Assembly: GCA_964016885.1 (NCBI GenBank)
Contig: OZ024741.1
Location: 203,794,001 to 203,858,000, forward strand
Origin: Eledone cirrhosa
Taxonomy: Eukaryota
DNA: 64,000 bases
Direction: 5' to 3'
Part shown: one piece after another, positions 1 to 24,059 of the stretch
Layout of the letters: each line of letters opens with the position of its first letter
Numbering within the stretch: the first letter of the stretch is position 1
Position numbers and translations under genes: made by a program
Notes under the pieces: model-generated
Told to the model about the DNA's origin: nothing
What the model saw: the letters and a program-made list of their open reading frames with translations, nothing else
Databases searched by the model: none

Positions 1-2100
1 TATTTTTAGCAGTCTTATGTTAGTTGGCGTTTTGATTGGTGCTGGTATTATGTAGTCCTGTTGTGAAATGTCTGTGTGTTCAATTATGTAAGTCATTAGT
101 TTCTTGTTGTGTGTGTTTATTGCCGTGCATTTGTTTTTCTGGGGGTGGGGTGTGGTTCTGCTATTTTCTTGTCGTTGTTGCTGGGTGTGTGTGTTTTGTT
201 GTTGTGTTTGCGATGTTGGTGCTTGTGGTGGTGGTGTTGAAGGTGTTGTTGGCGGTGGGGTTGTCGCCGGTGGTGATGGTGGTGCTGGTGTGGGTGGTGA
301 TGGTGTTGGTGGTGTTGCTGCTGTGGGTCTCTTTGCAGTAGACTTTACCCTTTTCTCATTTCTTTCCTCCCTTTTCAAAGGCGACGATGCGCTGCTTCTG
401 CGTTTGTGCCTTCTTGCGACCTTTTGCCATCCCTCTCCCACCTCACACTCCATGTCTGATTCTGTAAGGTCGGGGAGGGGTACCAGCTCCACTCTTTCAC
501 TTGTTGTTGTTGGTGATGTTTGCACTGGAGTCTCTGTTGCAGCTGCATTTGGTATTGCTGTTGTTGATGTTGTTAATATTTCCACTGCTGCTGCTGTCTT
601 TGATTTCCGTGGAGTGGGTATGGGTGCCACGGACCTATCGTTCCTGGTTGCCGCTTGTCCTGTTGCTGGTAGCCGTGGAGCCGGATTCGGAAGGAGGGGG
701 GTTTTCTCCTTTCTCAGGGTCTTCTCGTTGCAGAAGGCCCTGAGGTGAGTCTTCGATCCACAGCGAAAGCATTTCGGGCGTTTGCCCTCAACACTTATGG
801 GCAGTTGAGTGCCGTTATCGAAGTCTATCACATCCGGGATAGCTTCGATGCACTCCTGGTTGGTTTGGATTAGCATCTCAATGGAGGAGCCGACCCAATC
901 TTCTCTTACTTTTTTCTGTACTTGCAGTACAGTTGTTTTGTCCTCGATTCCGACGAGGACAGACGCGGCCAGCCAAGAAGGGGTCATTCCGGGGGGGACG
1001 TGGGTCAGTTTGACCCTCACAATTTTTTGCCCGCAGTAGGAGGGCACCAACACCATTTCCTCGCTCCTTAGGGTCACTACTGATTGGGCCTTTGCCTCCT
1101 GGGGTGTGGCAAAAAGTACGTCTACGGTGGCGTATTTTTTGCCTCGGGTGATGTGCGTTTTCCTCTGCCACACAGACCCCAAGGCTTTTTGTATTTGGGC
1201 CTCTGTGGCTCTTTCCACCCTACGGGATTTTGTACTTACTGTACGGTACGTGACCGTACAGTGCTCTTGGGTTTCGAAAAAATTTTTCGCTGCCTTGCAG
1301 ATTGCTCGGTGTCCGTTCTTTGTCACCATCTTCTTCGCTTCCTCTAATTCCTCATTTGTTATGAGGATTGTTTCCAAGTTTTTCGCAATACCTGCAAATG
1401 AGATTGGTTTTTCTCTGCTGTTGTTGTTGTCGTCAGAGCTGCTGGTACTTTTGTTGTTGCTGCAGGTACTACGACTACTGCCTCCGCCGCTGTTGCTGTG
1501 GTTGTTGTTGGTGTTGCTGCTGCTAATGCTGTTTTTGTTTATGCTGCTGGTGATGCTGTTGCGGCTGCTACTGTTGTTTTCATTGTCACTGTTGCTGTTG
1601 TTATTACGGCTGCTACTGCTATTATTCCTGACGTCAGACGAATGAACTGGGTTTTCGTATTTCCCGCACACCTGTTTCGTCGCTGTCGTCGTCGTCGTGG
1701 AGAAACCTTGCACGCTTTGCACGAGACTTTTCTTTTCTTTCGTCGCTTGCGAAAGAGAAGGGAGGGAGAGAGACACATTTAAAGAAGGGAGGGAGAGAGA
1801 CAATCTTCTCTCTGCTGTAGTGATGATTGAGGAAGAAGAAGACGGAATGAGTGGGAGTGACGTATGAAATTTCTTTTTCGTAGCCATGTTTTTTTGTTTA
1901 AAATGAAATTTTGGGTACAAAACCCCAATAACTGGTTATTTAACCCCGAAGGGCCAAATAACGGACAGAAAGACCCCTCTCACGAGGAGGAGGGTGTCTT
2001 TATCAACAATTTGGTTCAAGTTTTAAACAATTTACAATTGTTTTAACGGTTAAAAATTACTATACCTTACAGAGCCGAGCCTCCGTCAACCATGGCATTC
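1..2100 (-). mobile_element. 5' part (5'UTR + ORF1) of a Tx1-like L1-clade non-LTR retrotransposon, running off the left edge
   Basis: Minus-strand translation near 730-800 gives ISVEGKRPKCFRCGSKTHLRAFC (CCHC knuckle), matching IVEGRRPRCVVCGEGTHLRAFC in ORF1 of the element at 56372-61601. It has the same Thr/Pro/Asn low-complexity tracts and RGKKYATVDV / GQKIVRVK motifs. Its 5' end abuts (AAT)n at 2101. Confidence 0.85.

Positions 2101-2140
<40 letters not shown>
2101..2140. repeat. (AAT)n microsatellite used as a retrotransposon target
   Basis: About 13 AAT units between the Tx1-like 5' end and the 5'-truncated R4/Dong-like copy. Confidence 0.95.
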
Positions 2141-3641
2141 TATCTAGGTGTTTGTGAAGGAGACGGAATCAAGCACTCGACAATGAAGGAAATGATAAGG
2201 AAGGAATGTTACCGCAGAGTAAGAGCAATCTTAAGAACGGAATTGAATGCAAGGAATAGGATTGATGCCATAAACACGCTTGCCATACCAGTAGTAACCT
2301 ACAGTTACAATATCATCAACTGGTCAAGCACAGAGATCCGTAGGCTCGATACAAAAATTCGAAAATTCTTAACCATGCACAGAATGCATCACCCTAAGGC
2401 AGATACAGATAGAATATATCTCCCTAGGAAAGAAGGAGGACGTGGGTTAATCCAGTTAGACATTGCGTTGAAAACTGCAACAATTGGATTATCTACATAT
2501 CTAAGGGAATCACATGATTGGATGATCAAACTCGTTTTGAAACACGAAAGCATCAGAAGATCATATTCCTTTACAAAAGATGCACAAAGATACAGTAATG
2601 GACTACAAATTTCAGAAGTCCCATTTACTGCTGAAATGGAAAACACAGAAAAAGCAAAGCAGGTAAAAGTAACTGCAAAGAAAGAACTGCTACAGAAACT
2701 GACTAAGAAATGGCAAGAAAAGCCTCTGTATGGAAAATACCCAGAGCGAGCTAACAATCCTGATGTTGACAAAACTATAACCCATCAGTGGTTGGCATCC
2801 TCTGGACTGAAATCGGAGACTGAAGGACTGATTATATCAGCACAAGATCAGTGTCTGCCAACAAAAAATTACCAAGCCAACATAATAAAAAATGGATGCA
2901 GCCCATTATGCCGTGTATGCAAAAAACAACCAGAGACCATTAACCATATAATTTCAATGTGCAGTCCTATAGCTCCAACCGAATACCTAAACAGGCATGA
3001 CAGAGCTGCACAATACATACATTGGATAATGTGTAAGCATTTTGACCTGCCCCATCAAAAGAATTGGTGGGAGCATCAACCACCTCCCATACTTGAAAAA
3101 GATCACATCTCAATCTTGTGGAACTTTAGCATCCAAACAGACCAAAAAATAGATGCAAATAGACCTGATATAATATTGAAGGACTTTAAAAAGAGGGTAT
3201 GCCTGCTAATTGATATGTCTGTTCCAATAGACAAGAATGTATCTATAAAAACATTTGAAAAATTGAGCAAGTATAAGGACCTGGAGATAGAAATTGGAAA
3301 AATGTGGAAATTGAGAACTAAAACAATACCAGTGGTTGTAGGCGCTCTGGGAATGATACCTAAGGGGTCTAATGATTACTTATCGCAAATCCCAGGAAAC
3401 CCGCGTATAGGAGAAATACAAAAGATAGTACTAATGGGAACTGCCCATATACTAAGGAAGATTCTGTCAATATAAGTACATCACAAGTCTAAACACTAAA
3501 GATGCATGTGTGAATATGTATGTTCTTTCTTGAACATGGCGGACCTTGTTGTCTCTTGAGGTCACTGGTTGTGACTTGGTGATAACTCGTATGAACATAA
3601 AGCAAGATAAATACAACTGTAATAATAATAATAATAATAAT
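2141..3641 (+). mobile_element. 5'-truncated R4/Dong-like non-LTR retrotransposon (RT thumb, CCHC, restriction-like endonuclease)
   Basis: ORF 2183-3475 has YLG upstream, RIYLPRKEGGRGL, CRVC..ETINHIISMC, RHD, NRPDIIL..LIDMSVP, EKLSKYKDL and IPVVVGALG. It ends in a (TAA)n tail at about 3620-3640 and starts in (AAT)n. Confidence 0.9.
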
Positions 3642-4109
3642 ATATAGATACCTTTTAAAATGATTAATCTGATTAATCAGATTAATCATTTTAAAAGGTA
3701 TCTGTATTTGAAGTTCTAGATAAACTTTAATTGGTTACCTACCTAGCTATGTGTGCTTACATTCTTTACAAATTATTCCCTGTGATTGTTTCATATGTTT
3801 ATTTTATATATATGTCAATCTATTTCTAGTATATATATATATATTCAAAACAGGGGTCACACAGGGCAAAGACAACGGAAAAACGGACAACCCTATTTCC
3901 TACGTCAACCCCAGGAAGTCACTACAATTTCGGTTTTATTAAGGTTGATACTTTTCAATCCAGTGCTCATTAGGACGCAACAAAACAAGTAGAGATAAAG
4001 GCAGAACTAGTTATGGCTTTCGGCGAATTATACAAATAAGTACGAATAAATATCCCAAGTGCATCAACCGAGAAAGCCCGGTGTGTGAGGGCTATATATA
4101 TGGATATAT

Positions 4110-4212
<103 letters not shown>

Positions 4213-4279
4213 GTAGAACACTGGAAAGTAATATCCGTAGTGGTAGAGCACTCAGTCCATGGGGCGAGTTAGGTAGAAA

Positions 4280-4392
4280 TGGTTACACAACAGTTAGTTC
4301 ACCATACCGAGAACAATTGTTTCACCTTAGCGAAAGATCCGTTAAGGTGAAACAATTGTTCTCGGTATGGTGAACTAACTGTTGTGTAACCA
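4280..4392. repeat. Fold-back inverted repeat of a Penelope-like terminal module
   Basis: tggttacacaacagttagttcaccataccgagaacaattgtttcacctta is followed by its reverse complement. The same module recurs at about 9313-9382 and 51240-51425/51925-52105, always inside (TA)n. Confidence 0.8.
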
Positions 4393-4393
4393 C

Positions 4394-4429
<36 letters not shown>

Positions 4430-4455
<26 letters not shown>

Positions 4456-4671
4456 CTTGGGGAGGGTTATATTGTTGTAATAATATTGCCAGAATAATAA
4501 CAGAACACACTCACTGTGGTTGGTTTTCGCTTCTGTATCTTTTATATCAAATACAGATATAAATATATATATATATAGTCTATCAAAGTTCTTTCATTGC
4601 ACACCTACAACATCATCATGGAACTATTATGTTCCCTCCTATTGTATTGTAATGTCTACGCCATTTTTATT

Positions 4672-4702
<31 letters not shown>

Positions 4703-6065
4703 TTTCTTCTTGTCTCAGTCTCTGCGCATGCGTTTGCGTGTGTGAATAATGTTGGTGTGTGTATAATGTTTGGTGTGTGTGTGTGTGTGTGTGTGTTCGC
4801 GTTTGAGTGTATGTTTTTTTTTGTTTTTGTATTCTATCTTTGTTTACTAATGTGTGTTTATATGTGTTTGTTGTTATTGTACTTGTGTATATATTTATTT
4901 ATTTATATTTCCATTAAGTCAGTATTGTTTGTTTGGGTATGGTTTTTGTTGTTATTCCATCTATTTTTTTCTGTTTAACTTTGGTCTTCTTAGCTCTATC
5001 TCACTTGCTTCTCTGATTTGCCTACCTATTGAGTCATTTCTATGCTTAGATATTATTTTAATTTCTATGTTGTCTATATTACCATCATGTCTGGCGTGTT
5101 CATATAGTACTGAACCGTTTTTTTCCCCTTTTATTTCCCCCCAGTGTTGGTCTATTCTTTCTCCTATGCTTCGAGCTGTCTCACCTATGTATATCGTTGT
5201 CATGTTTCTGATAGTACCCTCTGTACATCTTATGGTATATCTGTATTTATATCTGTATTTCTATATTATATGTATAAAAATACAGATATAATATATTACA
5301 TCTTCTATTTATATCTGTATTTTTAACCGTTGGTCAATTGATGATAAACATTGATTGCCAAATAAATTAACTATGGAGATATAAAAGATACAGTAGCGAA
5401 AACCAACCAAACAGTGAGTGTTATTATTTCTGGCAATATTATTACAACAATATGACCCCCCCCCCCCCCAAGTATAACAATATTTGTTATCGACACATGA
5501 TTTCATATCAAAAACCTCGCAAAACAAATATATGTATATATATGTATATATATAACATGTCTATTGAGCACTCTTATTCGATATGTGATTTTCCACATTC
5601 CCGAATATTTTTCGCGGATATAGAGGTTATCTCCCTTGCTGGATTCCATGTGCGTTTTCAGCTAGGGTTGGCTTTTTTATTCGTCTGGACAAAGCTCGTT
5701 GATAAAGTATTTCCTGTCCGCCGCTCTCTAGAAGTCTTATATATTTTTATGTGGGCTGATAGTGGGCGGTTTAAGGATTTACAGAAACCCAAGAAGCTAG
5801 ATTTACCATCTTTCTAGTGGGTCCGGGTAAGCTTTTTACATTCACATGATTTATTGATTTATTGATATTTTATCTGAGTGACCCGAATCTTCCTGATCGT
5901 AATTTTTCGGTCGTATGGTTGATTTTAGACATAATCTATGTGTGTTGGTATTTTAACGATAGTTATAGCTCTGATTTCTCTGAATTATTGAGCCCTCTGC
6001 CACTCATGTCGAATTTTGTTTATCGTGAACTCGTGCGCCGATTTTTCGATACTCGATTATTCTAC
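4430..6065 (-). mobile_element. Penelope-like element remnants (GIY-YIG endonuclease and terminal repeat pieces)
   Basis: ORF 4961-5203(-) reads IYIGETARSIGERIDQH...IREASEI..RRPKLNRK (GIY-YIG C-terminal half). Flanking segments recur inverted at 5310-5530 and again at about 48300-48870. Confidence 0.75.
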
Positions 6066-6362
6066 TATATATATATATATATATATACATATGGATAGAT
6101 AGATAGAGAGAGATAGGTAGATACATACATACATTCAAACATAGATAGATATTATAATCATCCGGTATTAAAAAAAAACATGTGTTTTCACTAATACCAC
6201 ACACACATACACACACGCATACAGAAACACACACATACACACATTCTTATCATCCCCTTTCTATAAGGACTTGTTTCATCAAAGGATTAAAAAGATCTTC
6301 GGCGTTACTTTTTCCACCACCACAGCTCTCTCTCTCTCCTTCTCTTTTCTCCCGCTGTATTC

Positions 6363-6428
<66 letters not shown>

Positions 6429-6849
6429 CTCTATCTATCTATCTCTCTCTCCTTTCTCTCTGTATCTCTCTCTACTTCTGTCCCTGTCGCTCTCTCTTTC
6501 TCTCTCTTTCTCTCTTTGTTCTCTCTTTCTCTCTGTTTCTCTTTCTTTTCTCTCTGTTTCTCTTTCTTTTCTCTCTTTCTCTTTCTTTTCTCTCTTTCTC
6601 TCATTCTCTTTCTCACTCTTTCTCTCTCTCTCCTTTACGCACGCACACACAGACACACACACACACATACATACACACACATACACACACATCTACACAC
6701 ACACATACACTCCAGCGTGACCGACGTTACAATGGTCAGTGCTATAACAATTGATTCTACAAGCAAGAACATATGTATAAGAACTCTTTACAACAGATTT
6801 TATAAAAATGTTCGGATTAATGTTGTAACTTGATGAGAACGGAATTCTA

Positions 6850-7330
6850 ATAGGAGACTGTTGAGATCAATGAAGTGAATATATAGAGCGCAGGCCGGTT
6901 CCCCCGACATTCTGCTCTCAATAACATATTGAGAAGGAGACTGGACGCTGCTGGATTCCAATCCCAACTGGAGCCAGTCGGTCTAGACTGCGAAGAGAGC
7001 AAGCGTTCTGATGGAATCACCCTCTTTTCATTTGAAGGAGGTAGATATCTCATCTGGGACACCATATTTTGAGACACGTTCTCCACCTCCAACTTAGAGT
7101 CTTCGGCCATAAACCCCGGTACCACGGTGTCCAGAGGAAAGGAAGATAAACAAATACCTGGAATTCCCCGGCCGCTTCCTCTTCGTACCGGTCACCGTCG
7201 AGACCTCAGACGTACTTGGACCCCGTACTGCCGAGATTTCGCAAGATTGGAACGTCGGCGCCCTGTCTATTTAAGTGGAAATGGTGGAAATGCTTTTGCG
7301 TCCTGTCCGCGGGGCGCAGCCCCATTACGA
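6850..7330 (+). mobile_element. CRE-clade-like non-LTR retrotransposon 3' fragment (RLE domain), degenerate
   Basis: + strand translation gives NNILRRRLDAAGFQSQLEPVGLDCEESKRSDGITLFSFEGGRYLIWD, homologous to 11760-12350(-). Confidence 0.7.
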
Positions 7331-7551
7331 CCGCGCCCTGGGCCCAGACCCAATCACCCTCCCCTCCTAATTCTTCTGTGATACTAGTGTCCTTCCTTTT
7401 CCGTTTTTTTTAAATATATTTCCTTATTTTACATTCCATTCTTTCTTCTCAATCTAATTATTTTCCCTTTTTCTATTAAATTGTATTTAAAGTTTAAATA
7501 AGGATGAACAATCTGGGATTAAGCAGATATATATATATAATTAATACTCAC

Positions 7552-7653
7552 GTGTCATATTTGGTGGAGCATGAATCTGTAGAAGAAAGAATTGCTTCTT
7601 CGATCCTACAGGGATTCCGTATTCTTCATAGTACAAAAACATTTGAGTCGGTG
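7552..7653 (-). pseudogene. Exon 4 of degenerate PHM/Cu type II monooxygenase-like gene
   Basis: Reads (A)PTQMFLYYEEYGIPVGSKKQFFLLQIHAPPNMT, resembling the PHM GxxVG...YFVLQVHY segment. Perfect GTGAGT donor. The acceptor position reads ttttatttcAT instead of AG. Phase 1 matches the preceding exon. Confidence 0.65.
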
Positions 7654-7908
7654 ATGAAATAAAATGGAATCATTAATAGGGATTATTATATAATCCTATA
7701 TTATATATTTATGTGTATAATATTTATATTAGCAGTTTGACTTATTTGCACATTACCAGCGGTTTCATGACGTAATGCGGAGATAAATCAAGCTGTTAAT
7801 ATAAATAATCTCAATTTCCATATTACGTGTTGATTCCTCTTTTCTTTTCGTTTATATACATAGCTGTATATATATAATATATTATATATTATATATTATA
7901 TATTATAT

Positions 7909-7964
<56 letters not shown>

Positions 7965-7969
<5 letters not shown>

Positions 7970-8697
7970 TTAAGTCGTTTGGAAGCCTCGACAATGCAAA
8001 TGGGTAAATCTCCGGGTAACAAGATCCGGTGGTGGAGAGAGAGATGTAAGTGGGTGTACGTTGAGATGCGTCGTGTGTATAAGATATGTGAGATGTGTAG
8101 AATGAAGGGAAGAGTATAAAGGATAAAATAAAAATAACAACACAAGAGACAACTACACACACGCACACACACACAGTAGCATTCCACCTACGAACATACT
8201 ACACTGCAAATACAGAGGAACAAGGCAACAACACACGCACACACAGTAACATTTAACAAACAGGGAGAGAATGGACTGACAGCTAGCGCCATCCCACTCC
8301 CTCATTCGGCCGCTGACCTCTGTACGACCGACCCCATTTCACGCGCACGCGCGCTCTGCCGAATACCTCAGATATTCAAAACAACAAGCAGCGAAGGACG
8401 CGTTCCGTACTTGTCCGACAGACAACCTTTTCCCCCACCCGAAAAAAAACACAGTTGATGGATGTGAATCCGAAATATATAGGGACTATTAAATCTCTCC
8501 CAAGGTAACTCTCTCTTGTGTTGTTATTTTTATTTTATCCTTTATACTCTTCCCTTCGTTCTACACATCTCACACATCTTATACACACCACGCATCTCAA
8601 CGTACACCCACTTACATCTCTCTCTCCACCACCAGACCTTGTTACCCGGAGATTTACCCATTTGCATTGTCGAGGCTTCCAAACGACTTAAAGATAT
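7965..8697. repeat. Inverted repeat pair (about 7965-8150 and 8510-8697) around a ~360 bp spacer; probable Penelope-like 5' inversion
   Basis: ORFs 7903-8187(-) and 8516-8839(+) translate to near-identical strings (CCYFYFILYTLPF..HISHILY...). Confidence 0.75.
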
Positions 8698-8736
8698 TTA
8701 CTTATTGTTCCACAATGCTTTAAGAAAACTTCAATA

Positions 8737-8787
<51 letters not shown>

Positions 8788-8910
8788 TGTTATACTTTGG
8801 GAGGGTCATGCTGCCAATAAAAACACAATCACCTGTTGATTTTCACGTCAATTTATTATAAGTTTCCGGCTGGTTGGTTGGTTCGATAACTGGAAAGTTG
8901 TTTATATTTT

Positions 8911-8953
8911 GTCAAAGCTCTTTCGTCACATATTCTGTGACCTCCTCAGTGAC
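8911..8953 (-). ncRNA. Putative minimal type I hammerhead ribozyme in a Penelope-like terminal repeat
   Basis: Minus strand: gtca-CTGAGGA-g gtcaca gaata tgtgac-GAAA-gagc-TT-tgac, i.e. stem I, CUGANGA core, stem II hairpin, GAAA, short stem III and a UH site. A degenerate inverted partner lies at about 9008-9050. Confidence 0.6.
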
Positions 8954-9239
8954 TAAGTTTTCATTTTGTGTCTCCCCATGTTCTGTCCCACAGAACAAAG
9001 GAGAGTTACTGAGAAGGTCATGGAATGTGTGACGAAAGAATTTTGACAATATATAAACAACCATCTGGTTATCGGACCAACCAACCAATCAACCGGAAAT
9101 TTATAATAAACTGAATTGAAAACCAACAGGTGCGGGCGTTTTTATTGGCAGCATGATCCTCCCAAAGTATAACGATATATATCTACATATATATATATGT
9201 ATATATATATGTGTATGTGTGTGTATGTGTGCGTGTGTG

Positions 9240-9316
<77 letters not shown>

Positions 9317-9414
9317 GTAGTAACACAACAGTTAGTTCCCCATACCGAGATATGGTGAACTAACTGTTGTGTTACTACTTCTGATAAACAATTTCTACCA
9401 CTTACAGTGTTCTA

Positions 9415-9478
<64 letters not shown>

Positions 9479-9481
<3 letters not shown>

Positions 9482-9804
9482 ACGTTTGGATTTGTAAAGC
9501 CAAAACAATGCAGGTATGGACATAGAATATAAATGAAATGCAAAAGATATTGTTGACAATTAGTCTTTTACCTTAAATTTATTTAAATGTCCTTAATTTT
9601 CGAGATAATATCTCTTTTTGCAAGCTATTTAGAACACTGGTTTAACAGCTTTACTTCCCTCCGAAGAAGAGATATTATCTCGAAAATTAAGGACATTTAA
9701 ATAAATTTAAGGTAAAAGACTAATTGTCAACAAAATCTTTTGCATTTGCATTTATATTCTATGTCCATATCTGCATTGTTTTGGCTTTACAAATACAAAC
9801 GTTT
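9479..9804. repeat. ~140 bp-arm fold-back palindrome with a short spacer (Penelope-type)
   Basis: aaacgtttggatttgtaaagcc...ttttcgagataatatctct is mirrored by agagatattatctcgaaaa...ggctttacaaatacaaacgttt. Confidence 0.85.
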
Positions 9805-10597
9805 ATACCTCATTACACAATGATTCAAGTGAACTATAACTTCCTCCATATATTTATATATATATATATATATATATAGCGCATATCAAAAATTGTTGGT
9901 AAGTCCATTGTCTATTTGTTTCCAATGTAATTTTTTACGTACTTATTGCTGTTTTGTAGAAAAACACCATTACATTTTCATGTCCATTCTTTGCTTTGTT
10001 ATCGTCTCACATGAATCTTACCAACATAGCGGTTCTTTAATTTTGGCGCAAACTTGGATCATAAGTAAAAAATTGTACGCCAGTGAGGTGGCTGACTATG
10101 TAAATATGCAACTGTCTGTTTGTTTTATGTAACTGTGTGCTTTTTCTGATGTTACATATATACTGGAATTTAAAACAGGCGAAAATATATAGTTCTTACG
10201 CCTATATACATGGGTTGATTAGCCTCATTTGCATATGGAGCTGTCAGGCCGGCCGAGCCTGAAAATAGAATTAAAGTTTTCGCTCTGGCATAGCTATATA
10301 ATTATAAGTATGTTAATTTTGTATATGTAGTGATATAGTGATTCCTGCAGAAGCAGTAGAGAATAACTATCGACGATCGTTTCTGACTAGTGGCTGTTAA
10401 CAAGATAGTATATATATATATATGTGTGTATGTGTGTGTGCGTGTGTGCATAGATAGACAGATAAATAGATAAATAGTAGTTCAATAGATAGATAGATAG
10501 ATAGATAGATAGATGCAAATCATGAGCTCCTACACATCTGACTGCACATATAGAAGACCAGAGACCAGAGACGTTCAACTTAAACTAGAAGACAGCT

Positions 10598-10780
10598 TTC
10601 AGATATCCAGATGAGACATCCAACGCTAAACTCGTAAGTGACGTGTAGAAATTTAAAGACAGTGACTCAAATTTCACTATTAAATGGAAGATGCTAGAAA
10701 GATCCTGACCCTATACAAAAAGCTCGGGACATGTCAGTTGTGTACGACGGAAAGATGGGATACATTGAGAAAGCTGTACT
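10598..10780 (+). mobile_element. Penelope-like GIY-YIG C-terminal remnant
   Basis: Degenerate translation AKLVSDV*KFKDSDSNFTIKWKMLERS*PY...CQLCTTER. Confidence 0.55.
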
Positions 10781-10910
10781 ACTCCACAATCTATCTTATG
10801 TCTTATTACACCCGTCACATCTAACCATTGATATAATTCCTCTTGTGTCATCTGACCATATTTTTATTGAGTTAATCAAATGTGTGTGCTGAAGACATGT
10901 TTAGACCTAC

Positions 10911-11005
10911 CTTTTGGTAAATGCCATCCTGAAGCGTCCTTTGCCATCGCCCATAATGATTCTCCCTTCCCATATGGGCAGACATCCTCAGGTTTATTGC
11001 AATCC
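10911..11005 (-). pseudogene. Exon 3 of degenerate PHM-like gene
   Basis: tttctttgtAG acceptor and GTAGGT donor. 95 nt, phase 2 to phase 1, encoding DCNKPEDVCPYGKGESLWAMAKDASGWHLPK, comparable to PHM WxC...C...LYAWARDAxxxxLPK. Confidence 0.75.
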
Positions 11006-11759
11006 CTACAAAGAAAGCCAATTTCTTTTAGTTAGATATTCACCTCCTGAAGAACCGGCTCCGCAACCTTATTTCCATTATCTAGCGCCCAATTATAAAT
11101 ATAGCAATATCTCCTGTTCTATGGCCTATTAATATAGAGTATCATCATCAATATCATCATCATCTATATCATCATCATTATTTTTCGTCGGTTTTCTATG
11201 TTGGTAAGGGTTGAACGGATCGGGACTGTCAGAGATTAGGCGGGTCGAGGTACCATGAGTTCTTCATGTTTCATCTCTGGAATAGTTTCTACAGCTGGAT
11301 GGCCCTCCCAATGCCAACCACTTTACAGAGATTACTGTGCATATTTCATATACTGTGTATATTTTATTTTGTCACCAACACTGCCACGTTACAGAGTGTA
11401 TTGTGTGCATTTTATTGTGGTACCAGCACTACAACTTTACTGAGTACATGTTCATTTTATCGTAGTACCAGTAATTCCACTTCACAGAGTGTACTGATTG
11501 TATTTCATCATGACACCAACACTACTACATGCCGGAGTGTACTGGTTGCGTTTTATCGTAACACCAACACTACCACTTATAATATAACCAACAATAGATT
11601 ATCAGTTAGTGGTTAAAACAAAACGGTAATAACTTGTGTTTAATAGCTTTCTTTCGCAAATTGAATAAAACATGCATAGCAAGTACATAAAACCTGCAGT
11701 CTGATAAATGTGTCCGAACACGGAAGAGCCGAACTCCCACTGTCATCGCCTCTATTTCT

Positions 11760-12355
11760 CGCCCTCCCCATCTTTCTTTTATGAGCAAATGGGGCCCCAC
11801 GTGCTGGTCGCCCCACGGCTCCGGCGGGCAAAATGGAGAAGACGTTTCCTCCCCGGAGGATGGTAAGGGAGATGCGCTGGAAGAGCCATTCCATTTCGCG
11901 AGGCTCATACCTGCGGCTAGCCAGCTCAGCGCCTATGGTGGTATGTACGGAGGGAGCCCTAGGGCCAAGGACACAAGAAGTTTCCACTGCTAGGGGCACG
12001 ACCGCAAACCTGTCGGAGAGCGACCGATACTTGGAAAGTTTGCCTTCCTCAGCCGAGTGCAGCAGAACCTGGGTTAGTCGCCGACTGCACCAGGTTGCGG
12101 CTGGAGAGAGTGTCGCTGCAAGTAGCATCCCAGACAAGGGGTTTGCCACCGCAGAACGGGAAGATGGTCATACCGTCTGGCCTTTTGCTGTCCCCTCGAT
12201 CCATCCCTACCGGCTCAAGATGGGAGGGGAAGCCTGCAGCATCCAAGCCAAGCTTTACGACCTCGTTGAGGGCGGCGTGGCATGGAAGGTGGCCGGCAAT
12301 ATAGCGACAGGAAAGCGAGTGGAGGCCGAAAGAGTCCACGGTGGATCCGCGTGAT
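11760..12355 (-). mobile_element. CRE-clade-like non-LTR retrotransposon 3' fragment
   Basis: HSLSC...HAALNEVVK...LEPVGMDRGDSKRPDGMTIFPFCGGKPLVWDATCSDT and KLSKYRSL..VVPLAVET..LFQRISLTILRG; frameshifted. Confidence 0.8.
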
Positions 12356-12403
12356 TGTTCGAAGATATGATCAAAGTAAGTTCCTTACACTTCCAATAAA
12401 TAC

Positions 12404-12537
12404 CTTTGTCCCTTGCATTAGCTGTCTAGCTTCGCTAAATACAAAGTAAACTCTTAGCCAACAGATTGTAGCTGTTTGATTTCCTTTACATCGTCAACGT
12501 TGTTCAAATATATATCACATTTCTCAGAACTTTTTCT
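12404..12537 (-). pseudogene. Exon 2 of degenerate PHM-like gene (two in-frame TAA)
   Basis: ttttAG acceptor, phase 0 to phase 2. Reads RKSSEKCDIYLNNVDDVKEIKQLQSVG*EFTLYLAKLDS*CKGQR. Phases join exon 1 and exon 3 correctly. The donor is GTATTT, or GTAAGG 15 nt further on in the same phase. Confidence 0.5.
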
Positions 12538-13540
12538 CTAAAAGTATCAGATATTTTGTCGACTGAGACGAATTGGATTGATGCTGTTGATGTAGATGTT
12601 GAATCGATGAGATTGATGCTATTGATTTTAAAGAAAACCACTGAAAACTGCACCTATATAACCTTCTATAGACACTAAAACAAAACCATATATCATGCTC
12701 TCCTTAAGAGGCCGGAGATTAACAATTAATAATCTATGATATTTTTCGATCACAATTATATTAAGAAATGAAATCTACAGCCCACACCCATGCAGATTTA
12801 GCTGGCCTTATACGACGTTTACATTTTATAGGCGGTGTCTCAGGTGTTTTAATTATAAAAATTCCAGTCGTATCACGAAGAGTAACAAGAAATAAAGCTA
12901 AAAAAACTGAACGGGTGCCCTGTCCAGGAACCGAAGCTACGACGATATGACTATGAGTTCACCACCCTAACAACTGTCAGTTTAATAGATTTCTTAGATT
13001 ATAGATACATTAGTCCTTTCGTTTTTAACATCATATTCTGTGTAGTTTTGAGAAGTCTCATGGCTAAGTGGTTAAAACGTTGGGATCACAGTCGTAGAGT
13101 TGCAAGTTCGATTCTCGGTCCTGGCGGTGCCGCGTGTCTTTGAACAAGACACTTTATTTCACGGTGCTACAGTTCACTCAGCTGGGAAAAAATGAGTTTC
13201 GATGTCGCTGGTGCCAAGCTGTATGTACCTTTGTCTTTCTCTTGGACGGCACCGGTGGCGCTGAGAGGGGTGACTGGCATGCATTGACGGATGTTGGTCT
13301 TCCACAAAAACATTTTGTCCGAACTTGGGCCTTGGAGAGAAACTTTCTGGATGCAAACTCATGGTCATTCATAAATGAAAGGGACCTACTATTCGGTGGT
13401 GTAATAAAGAGAACGTTCAGACATTTTAAGTAGACATTACATATTACTGGAATACAGCAATCTTCGGAAACTATTAAATCAATAATTGCATTTCAAATTC
13501 ATTAAAATTATTTACAGTATTTTTTTTTTATATATCTAAA

Positions 13541-14226
13541 CTATTATAAAGTAAGAAGCGCGGGACTGCGTACGGTTTATAATTTGTTATCCCCTTAATA
13601 AAATAAGTTGGATTACTTTGAAGAAATAATTGCTTCTACTTTGGGCACAAGGCCAGCAATTATCCCAGTGTATTACTGGTACTTTATTTTATCGACCTGG
13701 TAAGGATGAAAGGCAAAGTTAACCTCGGCGGGATTTGAACTCAGTCCGTAAAGGGACGTAACTGTGCTGCAAAGCATGGCGTCCGACTCTCTACCGTTAC
13801 TGCCAATCCACCGCCCTTTGAAGAAATAATGAATGAATGTTACATAATTTATCTAAATTTATCTAAATTTCGTGGCTGTTCATTAAGTATATTTTATTAC
13901 TTATTTAAAGATTCACTTCTTTAAAATGTTCAAATGTAAACACTTCCGGTTAGCGATCGTTTAAATAAATATTCATATATTTCTGACACTAATTTTCTCC
14001 TAATGCAGTTTATATATAATATCGTCTTTTTTTTAATGTATCATGGATTACGTTACTGATTACATAAGAGAGTGTAACGCAGTCTTCGTTCAATTTCTGT
14101 GTATATTGTCAATTACGATTTTATTTGATGTATCAATATCTACATGTATATATACTTGCGTATAATATCAATATACACACTCCACATGTTAGCAGAAAAC
14201 CACCCGAAGGGTGGATTTTGTTCTAG
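13541..14226 (+). mobile_element. Non-autonomous dispersed repeat ending in a hairpin + CTAG (Helitron-like), interrupted by a SINE
   Basis: An inverted copy lies at about 49415-49895 and a diverged copy at about 16785-17240. The end reads agcagaaaaccacccgaagggtggattttgttCTAG|t. Confidence 0.55.
13625..13820 (-). mobile_element. tRNA-headed SINE (dominant family in window)
   Basis: Consensus ggcggtggattggcagta...gagttcaaatcccgccgaggttaactttgcctttcatccttacggggtcgataaaataaagtaccag. Other copies lie at about 15925-16060, 18360-18545, 25530-25720, 26255-26445, 30680-30800, 49140-49330 and 62785-62945. Confidence 0.9.
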
Positions 14227-14559
14227 TTTACTTTAATTATTATTAAATATAATTTAATTTTAAGCATAAGTAAGCAAGATTTTAGCAAATATGTGGAAAC
14301 GATATGAAGTGATGCCCATGCATATTGCAATATTTCGTCTTTCTTTATTAATATATTATTCATAATTTACATATACAGATGAATCACGTACCGTTTTCAT
14401 TCTATATATTCCATTGCTCGGTTATGTACGGTTATGCCGGAGATTGCCAAAATCCAATTATATGAAATGTCTACTTACAATGAATGCACGCTTATGAAAG
14501 AAAATGAAAGGAAATCCTATTTTTGTTATTTATATAATTAAATCAACATTAAAACAATC

Positions 14560-15920
14560 TCTCTTGTTGAAAATTGGGATTATCACTCCCGATTGTCATT
14601 GTTTAGGTGCCTTTCCAGAAATCCAGGCTACACTGCACACACGAGTCAGCCAGAGAATACCTTTTTTATTTAAGGCTTTTAACATCTCGGGCCGGATATC
14701 ATTTTGCCCAGCAACCTTGCCACATTTGAGCTCTTTAACTGCTCATGTGACTTCAGTCTCCGAAATATTAGTCACCACTCTCAAGTGCACCTCGTGTACA
14801 TCAGAAGATGCTGTTGTGATCGGGTTTAGGAGATCAGCAAAGTATTCTCTCCACCCCGTCAGCATGCACCACTCTGAAGAGGGATGAACCCCAGACGCGT
14901 TCCTGATAGCAAGTGTGGAGAAGGACTTCTTATTACGAAGTCCGTGGATGGTCTGCCAGAACACTTAATTTGCTTATATGAAGTCGGATTCTAGCTTAAC
15001 CCTAAAGTCCTCCTATATTTTAGCTTTGGATTCCTTTACTGTCTTTATGACTCTTCATTTCTGCTTGTACCGCAGGTGCAAGAAGGAGGGCTTATTTCCA
15101 AGTCAAGCTTTGTAGGCCTTCCTCTTTGCTCGGATGGATTATCTGACCTCTTTATTCAACCAATGGGTCCTCCCGCCATTCGGCACTACACTAAACCTCT
15201 TTGGCCCACAGCCGAAGCAGAAACTACTGAGCTGAACAATCTCCACTTTATCTCAACGTCTTCTGTTTCCTCAGGGAGTTCTCTAATTTGGGATGCAATA
15301 GTATCTGAATACCTGGTCCTGACTTCCCTATCCACCAACGCCGCTTCCCATTTTAGGTAGTATCAAGCCGCAGATAACTAGATGGTGATCAGGTGACGGC
15401 TCAACCCTGGTCTTAACATGAACATCCAGCACAGAATCGAAGAGATCAGAGAAAATAACAAAAAATCAAATTTCAAAAAGGGAGTCGAGAGAGATCGTTC
15501 CAATTACAGAAGGATCTCCTTTTTAAGACTTCCCCATATAGTCTGCTAAATGCTAAATATCTGGCGAAGAGATGCAGGGAGATTATCGAGTCCAAGTTAC
15601 CTGATGAGCAGTGCGGTTTTCGCCCCGGATGCAGCACAGCCGACCAAATATTCACACTGCAACAAGTCTTCGAGAAATAATGCGAGTACTGCCAAGAGGT
15701 GTATTCTTGTTTTGTAGACCTCGAAAAAACATACGACCGCGTCCCTAGGGACCTGCTGTGGAAGGCTGTGCAGAAATATGGGATCGGTGGTCAGCTTCTT
15801 GCTACCCTGATGTCTCTATATGAATGCCTGACTATTTGTGTTCGGATAAATGGTGCTGAATCGACACTGTTTAATGTGGGAGTTGGACTCCGCCAGGGGT
15901 ATGTACTGTCACCTCTCCTA
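14560..15920. mobile_element. RTE-clade LINE fragments in both orientations
   Basis: Minus: WREYFADLLN, WISGKAPKQ. Plus: EQCGFRPG, CFVDLEKTYDRVPR, VGVGLRQGYVLSPLL. Confidence 0.85.
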
Positions 15921-16310
15921 AAGAGTTACGGTCCTTTATGATCTGAGTTCAAATCCCGCCGAGGTTAACTTTGCCTTTCATCCTTACGGGGTCGATAAAA
16001 TAAAGTACCAGTAATGTACTGTTATAATTGCTGGCCTTGTGCCAAAAGGAGAAACAATTATTTACATGAACAAGATTGACATGCGCAGTCGAGTTGGAAG
16101 TGATATCATGACTGGCGGATGTAAAATGTAAAATCAGTTGGCTGGAATTTGCAGACGACATAGTGTTACTTAATTCGAGAGGTGATTTCCAACTTGCACA
16201 TGAGGTCAGCTGGTTTCGCTTGGAGATCTAACCAGATTAGTCGGATCCGGTTGGTTCTGACAGGACCCACTTGAAGGAGTATTTGAGGACTCTGCTCCCA
16301 CGACCCTCTC

Positions 16311-16416
16311 AGAAGAAGAAGAAGAAAAAGAAGAAGAAGAAGAAGAAGAAGAAGAAGAAGAAGAAGAAGAAGAAGAAGAAGAAGAAGAAGAAGAAGAAGA
16401 AGAAGAAGAAGAAGAA
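16311..16416. repeat. (AAG)n microsatellite
   Basis: About 35 GAA units. Confidence 0.95.
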
Positions 16417-17386
16417 GACTTACCATATTTGGTCAGATTTAGCAGGCTGATCACATATCATTACACTTATGTGACGAACGGTGTTCCGGTGATAAAGCGG
16501 GTCAAAAGACGCTGAAAAGGTACAAAACATCACTCGTAGAGAAATAAAACCTTACTTCAAGGATTCAATTTTATTGACTGATTAAGCTAACCTACATTAT
16601 CACTATCTTATATTTCAACCAATCTTTTCATCCAAACGACAAAAGCACATTGATGGCACCTACACTCGCCTACTTCCGCGCATTCAGAACATCTGCTGGC
16701 GACATCTGCCTTTGAGAGAGATATATTCCGGCATCATTGGAGAACTGCGGGTCTATGTAGAGTTTATCTTTTTACATCACGTTATCAAAATAAATAGGAT
16801 TACTTTGAATAAATTATGAATGAATATTAAATTTCTTAGCTCTTGATTAAACATAAATAGTCTATATGTAATGTATTGCTTATTTCAAGATTCACTTCTG
16901 TTAAAACTTTCAAATGTCAACTTCCGTTAGCGTTCGTTATATCATAACATTTATATATCATGTTTATATTTCCATCGCTAATCTCATTTTCTCCTTTTTC
17001 GTTTTAATATATATTTATTTCTAAGATTTCACCGTAGGGATAACATATATATTTATACATACATGGGTTGTCTTCTTTTAAACTATCATGGATTACTTTA
17101 CTGATTACAGAAGAAAATGTAACACTGTCTTTGTTCAATGTATGTGCATATTGTTAAATAACTTTTCAATTTACGTATCATATCTATATGCATATATATA
17201 TATATTTGCGTATAATACCTTATGCGCAGTACATTTTCTGCTGGTATAATCATAAAGATAGCAGAGTCATAAGAATGTGTTACGGTATTCGTCCAAGCTC
17301 TCTACAAATCCCACCGAGGTCAACTTGTCTTTAATCCTTTAGACGTTGATTTACAAAGTACCAAACAAGTACTGGGGTTCGAATTT

Positions 17387-17475
<89 letters not shown>

Positions 17476-19914
17476 AAATAGATTGTTTTCAGACCCTGAA
17501 GAGGTGTGGGCTTCATCAAATTTAAAATGTCCAAGACATGCCATATGTCCCGATGTAACCCCAACGACTCCAATAGAAGTTAAGAGACCATAGTATGTCA
17601 TATCAATTAAATTATTTGAGATGGAAGAAGATGTCAATCTCAAAAATTAGAAGTCCAAAGTGTCATGTTTCATAATTACAGGTGTACCAACTGTAGTTTG
17701 AATAAAGAAAATCTTCAGTAGAAGCGAAGTATATACTCACTAATGTATTGATTCGGATCTACTGGTACAGCTTTACACAAAAGACTTTTCGTCTGAAATA
17801 AGTTCACATTTATATATTATTCAAATTATAAGCTATGACTTAATAAAAAAACTTCTTGAATTTTAATCTTTGTTACCTCTTACAACAGTATGAAACGTCA
17901 TGAGCATATTTCTTTCGTTTAATTCTATTCATTGGCATTGCATTGAGTTCTGCCCATGATTGTCATTGAAACTAGTATAGCTTCTGGTCTCTCCATCTAC
18001 CATTGCAGCATCCTGGGTTTCTCTTTCCAAGGATCACCCTCTTCAGACAAATTTTAGAGAGATCTCATGCTCATTGTTATTACATTAAGTTTTGCCCATA
18101 ACATTGACATGATTTTAGGATCTGGTCGCGTCATCTATCATTGGGGTGCCCTCGATTTTTCTTTCCAGATATCATACCTTCAAGACAGATTTTAGAGAGA
18201 CCACAAATTGAGCTTTTCATGTAGCCATTAGTTTGAGAGAGTTGCTTTTAATTTTATTAAAAACTGGTTGTTGTTGTTGTTGTTGTCGTTGTTGTTGTTG
18301 TTGTCGTTGTTGTTGATGATAAGGATGATGTGTCATTTCTCGAATATGTAATATTTTTACCGGATTTGCAATATCGGTAGAGGGTCGGACGCCATGCTTT
18401 GAAGCATAGAGTTATGGCTCCTTACGTTCTGAGTTCAAATCCCACCGGGGTTAACTTTGCCTTTCATACTTACGGGGTCGATAAAATAAAGCACCAGTAA
18501 TGCACTGGGATAATTGCTGGCCTTGTACCCAAAGTAGAAACAGTTATTGTTGGTTAGGTGTTCAGTAATAAATCTCGTGACATGGTTATGAAATACTTCA
18601 AGTTTTGTAGTTAAATATTTACTGGTATATAAGTATGTATATACTATGTAATACGGGATGTTTGTTTACAAACACACCGAGCATTATAATAAATGTTCGG
18701 TGAATCCATACGTACATATATATATGTGTGCATGTATGTATATATATATATATATACATACTACTGTACGTCTGTATACATATATGTATGTACGTGTACA
18801 TACTTATATTTAAGTAACAGCCGTACTAAGAGTGGGAAATGAAATTTCGTTTCATTTTTTCCGTTTATTTACCGGTAATTATTTCATTGGCTCACTTAAA
18901 TGTGACCTCAACTCGGATACTGGAGACAATAAACCAAATATATTCAAGAATCTACAGTGTATAATGTTCATTTTTTGTGGTTTTACTTTTTTCAGGAAAA
19001 TCTACGTGCGGTAACGATGAACATGGTAAGCGCTTTCATCGGAATATTCTTATTAGGGAAAAGCGTTACCAAGGCAACTCGGTCCTAGAATACTTACTGA
19101 CTACTTCGGTACTCTGAAGAAGCACATGACTGTAAGAAAGCTTAGAAGAAACTCAAACCTGGTTACTTTTGAAACTACGGGCATACATTTTCGGTCGTAT
19201 TTTAATAAAGATAAAAGCATGTTAAACATATATTTGTATTCAACGCGAAAAACATTTTTAGGATCACATATTTTGATTATTGTGGCACGATAAAATACTT
19301 TATTCCCTCTGCTCCTCACCTCCTTCAGTGTAATGGGAGCATTGAGAATGATCAAAGAACATGCAGACAAAGGCTTAATCAGAACCCCAGAACTTTGAAA
19401 TAGGCATAACATACATAAAGTAGCGCTGTTAGGAAAGGTGTATATATTACATAGCGTACTTTCAATATAATAGAAGCAAAAAAAAAAATAATACTGCGAA
19501 ACCCAAGGTACACAGGGATACGGTCAGTATGGAAACGAATGCATAAAATAAAGGATGACTAAACAAGAATATCGGCATCAATAACAACATCAACATTGAC
19601 AACAGCAACAACACAGCAGCAACAATATATACCTTATATCTATAGCTACCCCGTAACTTAATAAGCACCAAATTAAACCGTTGAAACTTCATATCCTATC
19701 GCATTAATTTCATGTTGTATTTTAACCTGTATTTTTGATTTTATCCTCTTTTAATATGAATGTAACCTCTAAATGTATACTGCCACTCTAAATGTATACT
19801 GCCACACTAAATGTTGTAATGGATGTCGACCCACCAAGCAACAATGTTTGCATATGTATCTGTATGTCTCTTGGGTTGAAAAGGAGGTCATATAAGTGAT
19901 CATTCATTAATAAA

Positions 19915-19963
19915 TTGCTCCGAAGAAACCAAACCTCGGTTTGGAGGAAACAGTTGTAAGCAT
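19915..19963 (+). ncRNA. Putative hammerhead ribozyme (CCGAAGA core variant) in a Penelope-like 3' region
   Basis: tgct-CCGAAGA-aa ccaaacc tc ggtttgg ag-GAAA-c agtt g-TA-agca: stems I, II and III and a GUA site are present. Confidence 0.55.
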
Positions 19964-20168
19964 AAAAATGTTTTGAACAGATCTTTGATTCTTATAACTT
20001 ATATATAACTGCTCTGTAAAACATCTGATGTTTTTACATTGAGCTATTTAACTTACTGGTAATAAGGTAGTAATATATTACTGCCTATCACTATTTAGGG
20101 TTTGTAAAAATATATATAACTACAAAAGGTTTTTGTATTTGCATAACCATAAATAGTATCCTTAGTAC

Positions 20169-20207
<39 letters not shown>

Positions 20208-20305
20208 GGGGATAGAGAGAGCGAGAGAGAGAGAGAGAGAGGGAGAGAGAGAGCGAGAGAGAGAGAGAGAGAGAGAACCACTGTAAACAAAATATGGGTA
20301 CTTAC

Positions 20306-20410
20306 ACCGTCCCAGACAGAGTTTGGTATGGTTATTTGAACGGTTTTAGATTCTGCAAAGGTCGTCGTTAAAATGAAACTCAACCACACAAGAATTTCGA
20401 TGGATAACAT
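20306..20410 (-). CDS. Exon 1 (signal peptide) of PHM/Cu type II monooxygenase-like gene, likely pseudogenised downstream
   Basis: ATG in an aacaATG context. Encodes MLSIEILVWLSFILTTTFA|ESKTVQITIPNSVWDG (hydrophobic core and small-residue cleavage site). Perfect GTAAGT donor at 20305-20300, phase 0. Confidence 0.75.
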
Positions 20411-20459
20411 TGTTTCAGTTGGTAGTTCGACTGTTTAGTTTTTACTGCATCAGTCGGGA

Positions 20460-20473
20460 CATATGTTTATATA
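20460..20473 (-). promoter_or_regulatory. Candidate TATA box (TATATAAA) with adjacent CATATG E-box
   Basis: About 55 nt upstream of the ATG at 20410. It borders a (TA)n tract, so it could be incidental. Confidence 0.4.
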
Positions 20474-22767: not shown

Positions 22768-24059
22768 TCTATATATATAAAACTGTGGTTGTCTGTCTGT
22801 CTATCGATTTTTGGCACACATCTCCTCTTAGAATCTCTCACGGAATTGCACCGAAATTGCTATACTTGTACATTGAGCCCTAGCGAAGACATCGGAAAAA
22901 AAATATTTCAAATTGACCCGCCCTATCTGACGAAATCGAATATAATGTATCGATTTTTGAGCGTAAGTGATCAGTTATTTCCCTTTGTTCTGTTTACATT
23001 GAGCGTCTGCGTGCAAAAATTAAAAAAATTACGCTGGCTTTCTCAGCGTTTAAAATGACATTAACACAATAATTTTTACTTGAAAACAAGTCTATTTAAA
23101 GACTACGTAAAACAAGCAAATATTTCGTAAAAAAAAGCAAAAATTATATAAGTTTATTTAAAATATATGTATCTGTAAATTTCGTTAGGCGTGCAGTCAG
23201 TTTTATATATATAGATGATAAACAATAATATGTGTGACCTCTATGAGGTCACTAAACCTGCTAGAAACAGCAGCTAACTCTCCCTCATATCACACCACTC
23301 CCTACTGTCTTAAATTTAGAAAACACATATCCTCTATGAGGTTACTAAACCTGCTAGAAACAGCAGCTAACTCTCCCTCATATCACACCACTCCCTACTG
23401 TCTTAAATTTAGAAAACACATATCCTCTATGAGGTTACTAAACCTGCTAGAAACAGCAGCTAACTCTCCCCCATATCATACCCCTCCCTACTGTCTTAAA
23501 TTTAGAAAACATATCTTCTATGAGGTCACTAAACCTGCTAGAAACAGCAGCTAACTCTCCCTCATATCACACCACTCCCTACTGTCTTAAATTTAGAAAA
23601 CACATATCCTCTATGAGGTCACTAAACCTGCTAGAAACAGCAGCTAACTCTCCCTCATATCACACCACTCCCTACTGTCTTAAATTTAGAAAACACATAT
23701 CCTCTATGAGGTCACTAAACCTGCTAGAAACAACAGCTAACTCTCCCTCATATCACAACCCTCCCTACTGTCTTAAATTTAGAAAACACACAGACAACCA
23801 TGCAGAACAACTCCATCGCAGCTCTGTTGTTCGGCTGGCATCGTCTACGCGCGTGTTGCGCAAGTACTGTGAAACAATAAATTTCAACACTTTTTTGCAC
23901 AGAGATAATATCCATAGGCGAAACTACAATTGTCACTGCTGGCGCAGCTCATGCTTCCAGGTCTGCAATTCATTCACCCAGTGCCTGGCAGACAAAAAAG
24001 TGCTGCAACCTAACTTTGGTAACTTAATGACCCCGAGCAACGCCGGGCTTTAATGCTAG
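22768..24059 (+). mobile_element. Non-autonomous Helitron
   Basis: a|TCTATATATATAAAA 5' end; 3' hairpin cccgagcaacgccggg followed by CTAG|t (AT target, no TSD). Confidence 0.85.
23238..23790 (+). repeat. Tandem array of ~6 x 93 bp units inside the Helitron
   Basis: Unit cctctatgaggtcactaaacctgctagaaacagcagctaactctccctcatatcacaccactccctactgtcttaaatttagaaaacacatat. Confidence 0.95.

Follow-up and report, generated by a model that had tools for sequence, protein, structure and literature searches.

We describe a gene related to peptidylglycine alpha-hydroxylating monooxygenase (PHM) in a 64,000-nucleotide stretch of the 3.0-Gb, repeat-rich genome of Eledone cirrhosa (C2:203794001-203858000, on contig OZ024741.1; below, "the window" is this whole stretch). 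The gene lies on the minus strand and continues beyond the left edge of the window. It is an intact PHM paralogue of 12 exons and 337 codons, rather than the decayed gene that an original prediction, made from the window's letters, had described. Judged from its sequence relatives, it belongs to a clade that is an uncharacterised side branch of PHM with a conserved, remodelled active site. Our preferred reading, to which we give somewhat better than even chances, is that the product is a secreted copper oxygenase whose substrate has changed, and which would activate oxygen at a complete CuM copper site, likely to act on something other than a glycine-extended peptide.

The 12 exons (Table 1) join into one open frame spread over 43.9 kb, in which there is no stop, frameshift or dead splice site. 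All introns are GT-AG, and all 11 intron phases are identical in the window gene, a paralogue on the same sequence and the two canonical PHM/PAM genes of this genome. The window gene is the orthologue of the Octopus proteins XP_029641604.1 and CAI9728457.1, with 64% identity from end to end (64-65% when XP_052826668.1 is included). Taken singly, exons 1, 2, 4 and 5 have 18/35, 11/17, 20/32 and 15/24 residues identical to the O. vulgaris orthologue P0004; exon 6 was picked by splice strength and then supported by the orthologue (12/19 identical). In exon 12 the frame stops after 71 codons, no strong donor precedes this stop, and the orthologues end at the same place. Seven exons, all open, lie 4.9 to 23.5 kb to the left of the window, where further exons had been guessed.

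The original prediction joined four segments into a strongly diverged, perhaps non-catalytic secreted PHM paralogue, and it took two TAA codons in the second segment and an AT in place of the acceptor AG of the fourth as marks of later pseudogenisation. The likeness to PHM is real. The prediction also holds in that the paralogue has diverged strongly, is probably secreted and is altered at its CuH copper site; it does not hold in respect of decay. As described, joining the four segments preserves the reading frame, and the sequence does contain the two TAA codons and the AT. Contigs from three public sequencing runs (one sample, perhaps the assembled one) repeat the assembly's letters there, with zero differing letters in the listed pieces of the second to fourth segments, so the stops are not assembly errors. 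The first segment (phase 0) and the third (phase 2 to 1) are exons 1 and 4 of our model, and the donor of the last one, at 7551, is correct. The second segment fails as an exon, since its peptide scores 18-24 against four orthologues, values that 67-236 of 500 shuffles reach. The AT at 7655-7654 marks a mis-set boundary; counted from the AG at 7625-7624, the exon is 72 nt long and aligns to the orthologues without an insertion. Once the PHM/PAM exon pattern is applied, every cited lesion falls outside the exons, and the intact gene looked like a pseudogene because one exon had been guessed. Pfam returned no family for any of the four segments taken singly, which are too short to tell.

That the locus is a decayed PHM-like pseudogene after all we consider extremely improbable. 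Besides the stops and the AT, which are genuine letters, one could cite in its favor a 1-nt deletion at 17786, in exon 2, which one of the three runs has on a single contig with a depth of 2.7. However, the deletion sits in an A4 run and is absent from the other two runs and from the assembly. We read it as an error, though it may be a rare allele. Moreover, the stop-bearing segment is without similarity to the annotated Octopus proteins, which the open frame with its canonical exons matches over its whole length. Exon 3 has no differences in the contigs of any of the three runs. These runs contain intron sequence and have no joint across intron 2, a result that is uninformative on expression.

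The evidence for exons 2 and 3 comes from comparison with related genes. The 95-nt exon 4 matched a paralogous exon at C2:133616095 (48%, E 0.002). In the canonical PHM/PAM genes, the place of the original second segment is taken by two exons, one of 55 nt (phase 0 to 1) and one of 88 nt (phase 1 to 2) that encodes the His-His pair of CuH; exon 3 equals the latter in length. In the paralogue, the top two of 417 splice-site candidates in a 19-kb stretch are a 52-nt and an 88-nt exon with matching phases; a single exon running from phase 0 to 2, as in the original prediction, had no convincing candidate there. The paralogue's peptides selected exons 2 and 3 of the window gene among 763 window candidates, with equal lengths, matching phases and no stops. 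Their scores are 45 and 53, against 24 and 23 for the best phase-matched candidates elsewhere. Jointly, the two exons score 106-156 against four orthologues, which none of 500 shuffles reached in each case. The paralogue's next exon has 72 nt after a canonical AG, the same length that the AG at 7625-7624 yields.

For exons 6-12, the exons of the canonical gene on C11 guided the search, first in the paralogue and then in the window gene. Searched independently against the genome, the O. vulgaris protein matched nine exons of the window gene and four of the paralogue, i.e., two copies were found; it also gave one weak match on C3 (E 0.58). Genome-wide searches with PF01082 and PF03712 recovered DBH/MOXD and canonical PHM genes and did not recover the window locus, and a word search with the frames of exon 4 gave no match. 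A match to exon 4 at C10:52178252 was discarded as a simple repeat, and an all-against-all comparison of open reading frames in two PAM loci gave mostly repeat noise.

Two members of the clade, P0001 and P0002, pass the curated cut-offs of both PF01082 and PF03712, and both domains are precomputed for P0004. With P0004 standing in for the window protein, an AlphaFold model built from 14 sequences has a pLDDT of 76.3 and a pTM of 0.76. In Foldseek, PHM makes up all of its top matches (E 4e-18, TM 0.60-0.70), followed by DBH, and ESM Atlas features give PHM clusters at 0.94-0.96. The product is likely secreted; it has a hydrophobic N-terminus (hydropathy peak 2.43 at residue 4), four N-glycosylation sequons and no later membrane-length stretch. 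The PAL (NHL) and membrane domains that can follow PHM are absent, and exon 12 ends in a stop. A DOMON domain is also absent, the PHM-like core beginning right after the signal-like segment in a protein of 337 residues.

We compared the active site with that of rat PHM, whose residue numbers we use by alignment. The ligands of CuM are all kept, with His201, His203 and Met273 standing for His242, His244 and Met314. CuH consists of His66 and His131 only, and Arg65 occupies the place of His107, so that the three-His set is incomplete. The second of these ligands, His131, is the histidine of the LQIH motif that the original prediction rightly saw as retained, and is equivalent to His172. That prediction also held that the CuH pair was not visible; the pair is indeed altered, and it can be seen in the missed exon 3 as Arg-His (codons at 16476-16471). 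Among the substrate contacts, Ser199 takes the place of Arg240 and Asp275 that of Asn316, and Tyr277 preserves Tyr318. Further changes are Gln272 to Glu, Glu313 to Gln and Tyr79 to Leu; Gln170 is kept. The two canonical genes (C11:53.11-53.14 Mb and C3:348.03-348.10 Mb) have the textbook residue at every compared site. Exon 12 of each has a long tail and then a stop, with possible donors before the stop.

The same pattern recurs throughout the clade, for which sites were counted in 20 rows. His172, His242, His244 and Met314 are present in 20/20, and His108 in 19/19 that cover it. Position 107 is Arg in 18 rows and Asn in one, the region being absent from the remaining one. Arg240 occurs in 0/20 (Ser, Gly or Ala instead) and Glu272 in 20/20. 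Among 16 clade sequences, several of which are nearly identical, 75 of 302 columns are invariant. Of the window protein's 11 histidines, those at the four ligand places, and no others, are invariant in this set; so are Met273 and all eight cysteines. Gln170 and three more methionines (136, 205 and 251) are also invariant in the clade.

For comparison outside the clade, a profile was run against 1.84 billion representatives; 608 matched at E 0.001, and we counted 157 domains of 147 proteins from the best 150 of them. Among these, His107 is found in 133 of the 141 domains that cover it, with no Arg and one Lys, and Arg240 in 132 of 148. A few other unnamed PHM domains (P0035, P0128, P0142, P0159 and P0164) have lost copper ligands independently; in P0035, a ligand-less first domain precedes an intact PHM and NHL repeats.

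The best single-domain matches outside the clade among those listed, P0019, P0021, P0022, P0024 and P0025, are 28-35% identical to the window protein. In a quick tree of 62 rows (every row with a deviation at 107 or 240, 26 canonical ones, the two PAMs and the clade members), these five, P0046, P0127, P0037 and the clade form one branch with an SH-aLRT of 98. Six of them (P0021, P0022, P0024, P0025, P0046 and P0127) keep all six copper ligands and lack Arg240. P0019, the best outside match of all those listed, has Lys at 107 and also lacks Arg240.

Within the clade, intact relatives exist both in Octopus and in this genome. A search with the last exon found two Octopus proteins, one of which found five more clusters. 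Nine unnamed Logan proteins are ~50% identical to the window protein and to the paralogue. They are complete on contigs no longer than 2.6 kb, one of them on 30 contigs, and are probably transcripts, because they are whole on short contigs though the gene has 12 exons. The paralogue (C2:133597217-133635232) lies 70 Mb from the window gene and is itself intact, with 12 exons, 331 codons, an Arg-His CuH and Ser at 240. It is 61-63% identical to XP_036362534.1 and XP_014770957.1. Its exon 6, of 49 nt, is unlike that of the orthologues and was possibly chosen wrongly. Its exon 1 occurs in four tandem copies of a ~2.6-kb unit (97-99% alike, C2:133635131-133643260), by expansion or as an assembly artefact.

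The window gene and the paralogue are 47% identical, and over 327 codons they differ with a pS of 0.81, at which synonymous sites are saturated, and a pN of 0.34. An arrangement of the two as sisters is rejected (p-AU 9e-14), and therefore the pair is older than the split from Octopus. In a tree of 18 rows, from which P0001, P0008, P0009 and P0011 (truncated or isoforms) were omitted, the clade stands apart from the two canonical genes at 100/100. The window gene groups with the first Octopus set at 97/99, on a branch of 0.23, which is not long. The window protein matches the two canonical genes with E 1e-34 and 7e-28. By these comparisons, we conclude that the gene is old and constrained.

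Published work on the rat enzyme provides the frame for interpreting these changes (PMC12164859 and PMC6123673). CuM binds oxygen adjacent to the substrate, whose carboxylate forms a salt bridge with Arg240, with additional contacts to Tyr318 and Asn316; any two of the CuH histidines bind Cu(I); in the closed structure of H108A, His107 reaches the CuM copper; and in Q272E the CO band is unresponsive to the peptide substrate (PMC12164859). What CuH and domain closure do in PHM is a matter of debate (PMC12164859).

We propose that, in a wider side branch of PHM, the Arg240 carboxylate anchor was lost first, with all six copper ligands kept, which would indicate a change of substrate and not the death of the enzyme, and that the Octopus-type clade then placed Arg at 107. 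The two-His CuH would still retain Cu(I) and transfer an electron. Arg65 may face the cleft and serve, from the opposite wall, as a new anion anchor for substrate or reductant; this relocation is a guess, drawn from the closed structure and from the Lys of P0019. The two canonical genes, which have every site residue, would then account for peptide amidation. DBH and TBH act on non-peptide substrates, and the DBH/TBH- and MOXD-like genes of this genome have Gln, Leu and Phe at the Arg240 place. We favor an oxygenase with a changed substrate because the full CuM appears to be under selection, because relatives have lost only Arg240, and because this Arg is absent from the DBH/TBH/MOXD-like genes. 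Going further, it is conceivable, though we hold it with clearly less than even confidence, that there is an unrecognised animal branch of PHM-type copper oxygenases. Its active site would have been rebuilt in two steps, by loss of Arg240 and then by the change of His107 to Arg/Lys, for a new oxidation in cephalopods, with CuH reduced to two His and an arginine shifted to the other side of the cleft.

It is important to consider several observations that weigh against this reading. Rat PHM H107A still binds two coppers, and yet its activity is at most ~5%, a limit that holds for every CuH single mutant (PMC12164859). The loss is mainly through kcat, which falls >150-fold (PMC6123673), so that a two-His CuH may not support turnover. 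Within the clade, position 316 varies between Asp and Asn, and position 318 between Tyr, Asn and Ser. The O. bimaculoides model, P0018, has Asn at 107, and P0037 and P0153 have Leu; a positive charge at 107 is therefore perhaps not essential. P0037, moreover, lies within the wider branch yet keeps Arg240, and the inner forks of that branch have values of 82-88 in the quick tree, so the order of the losses is not fixed. As for the gene model, the acceptor AG of exon 5 is canonical but weak by a crude score, and splicing could use another in-frame AG, 18 nt further downstream, in its place.

Two further explanations accept the gene as intact. The non-catalytic part of the original prediction is kept open as one of them, in view of a CuM that is complete and conserved and a CuH that lacks one of its three histidines. 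The product would then be a copper-binding pseudoenzyme, which holds or delivers copper, or binds a ligand, in the secretory pathway or in a secretion, without turnover. Cephalopods need much copper for haemocyanin, which we count in favor of this explanation, as we do the absence of Arg240, the frequent Asp at 316 and the invariant Met136, Met205 and Met251, which could add soft copper sites. The copper retained by rat PHM without His107, at an activity of at most 5%, also suits it (PMC12164859). However, the oxygen-binding His/His/Met and Gln170 are invariant when seven other histidines are not, and sister lineages without Arg240 keep all six ligands, as is expected of enzymes. We regard a pseudoenzyme as rather unlikely.

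The other possibility, which we judge improbable, is that the protein has remained a peptidylglycine hydroxylase, a slow one or one specialised for certain precursors, in which Arg65 replaces Arg240 as anchor of the glycine carboxylate. The PHM fold and exon pattern, the retained Tyr318 and the single arginine that the cleft keeps are consistent with this, CuM is within reach of position 107 in the closed form (PMC12164859), and databases call the orthologues PAM-like or PHM-like. These names are automatic, however, and two of the three substrate contacts (Arg240 and Asn316) are changed, as is Tyr79. There are relatives outside the clade that lack Arg240 and have no basic residue at 107, and two canonical genes are already present. 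From the rat CuH mutants and the lost contacts together, we expect the window protein to be a poor ordinary PHM.

If the active site was indeed rebuilt in two steps for a new oxidation, nature would supply an exception to the rule of three indispensable CuH histidines, and the mechanism of domain closure could be tested on it. The clade is conserved and duplicated; with the oxygen-activating site kept and the peptide anchor dropped, it would represent a further activity, hidden under the label "PAM-like". The clade naturally combines changes at 107, 240 and 272, positions studied in the rat enzyme, and thus offers a ready test protein. We found no publication on the clade in the open literature searched, and no match for R240Q in the same literature. 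The Octopus ink proteome (PMC10142993) and one short supplementary file of PMC9068888 had no matching term in the parts available, and Euprymna organ tables (PMC12773714) had only a PAL row among the 2 of 4 term places shown.

Table 1. Features of the locus and of the window. Plain positions are those of the window; positions beginning with C2 are those of the sequence that contains it, to the left of the window.
Feature	Position	Strand	Description
Exon 1	20306..20410	-	ATG; hydrophobic, signal-peptide-like N-terminus; residues 1-35; phase-0 GT donor
Exon 2	17741..17792	-	52 nt, phase 0 to 1; Cys41, Leu39 (Tyr79 of rat PHM); missed by the original prediction
Exon 3	16424..16511	-	88 nt, phase 1 to 2; Arg65-His66 at the His107-His108 CuH position; missed by the original prediction
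Original second segment	12404..12537	-	Part of intron 3, non-coding; AG/GT ends due to chance; contains two TAA
Exon 4	10911..11005	-	95 nt, phase 2 to 1; third segment of the original prediction
Exon 5	7552..7623	-	72 nt, phase 1 to 1; His131 (codon 7573-7571), the His172 CuH ligand
Part of intron 5	1..7551	-
Exon 6	C2 203789107-050	-
Exon 7	C2 203786056-5992	-
Exon 8	C2 203784264-184	-	CuM His-x-His; Ser at the Arg240 place
Exon 9	C2 203782174-098	-	Glu at Gln272
Exon 10	C2 203774917-864	-
Exon 11	C2 203772159-110	-
Exon 12	C2 203770706-490	-	CuM Met; stop codon
ORF1-like frame	1-1935	-	645 codons; related to the LINE at 56480-61356
High-copy fragment	11640-12384		GC-rich; directly 3' of the original second segment
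Tandem repeat	23238-23790		93-bp unit, six copies, 96% alike
Helitron pieces	27742-28845 and 32167-36085		Broken; Helitron_like_N and PIF1 helicase
Tandem repeat	44569-45581		63-bp unit in 16 copies (97% alike); both strands open for >380 codons
LINE	56480-61356		Near-complete; 1094-codon endonuclease/reverse transcriptase frame behind ORF1-like pieces

The high-copy fragment of the window presumably resembles the endonuclease end of a non-LTR (long terminal repeat) retroelement, for which Pfam gave no match. A Pfam match to TRAP_beta in the 63-bp tandem repeat is weak, has no passing stretch and is probably spurious. Elsewhere in the genome, there are a cluster of about five genes at C13:27.24-27.72 Mb and one gene at C19:10.58 Mb which, from their motifs, we take to be MOXD/DBH-like and DBH/TBH-like, respectively. 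One exon on C13 (L073) has a stop near the Met motif.

To our knowledge, animals have few enzymes of this copper family, namely PHM, DBH, TBH and MOXD1. The closest known counterparts of the window protein are its orthologues XP_029641604.1 (O. sinensis), CAI9728457.1 (O. vulgaris) and XP_052826668.1 (O. bimaculoides), which share its clade and its altered site, the O. bimaculoides model differing from the others in its Asn at 107. They bear only automatic names ("PAM B-like / probable PHM 1") that imply ordinary amidation. The rat PHM core of PAM (PDB 1PHM, 1OPM and 3MIB; EC 1.14.17.3) is alike in its two-domain fold, as seen in the orthologue model, in its match to the clade profile (E 1e-31) and in the residues that the window protein keeps, and it differs at the six substituted positions (79, 107, 240, 272, 313 and 316) and in the PAL and membrane domains that the window protein lacks. 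The best-scoring PDB sequence is 8DSL, the engineered Q272E variant. Monofunctional invertebrate PHMs, the nearest named ESM Atlas clusters and mostly from arthropods, are similar in length (~336 residues) and contain only PF01082 and PF03712 (feature score 0.95-0.96). Unlike the clade, canonical PHMs among the matches listed keep His107 and Arg240 in about nine of ten domains. DBH, TBH and MOXD1 share the copper type II core and, like the window protein, have no Arg at the 240 place. However, their match is weaker (4ZEL, E 9e-8, as against 1e-31 for PHM), the window protein has no room for their DOMON domain, and they keep the His-His pair that the clade has altered.

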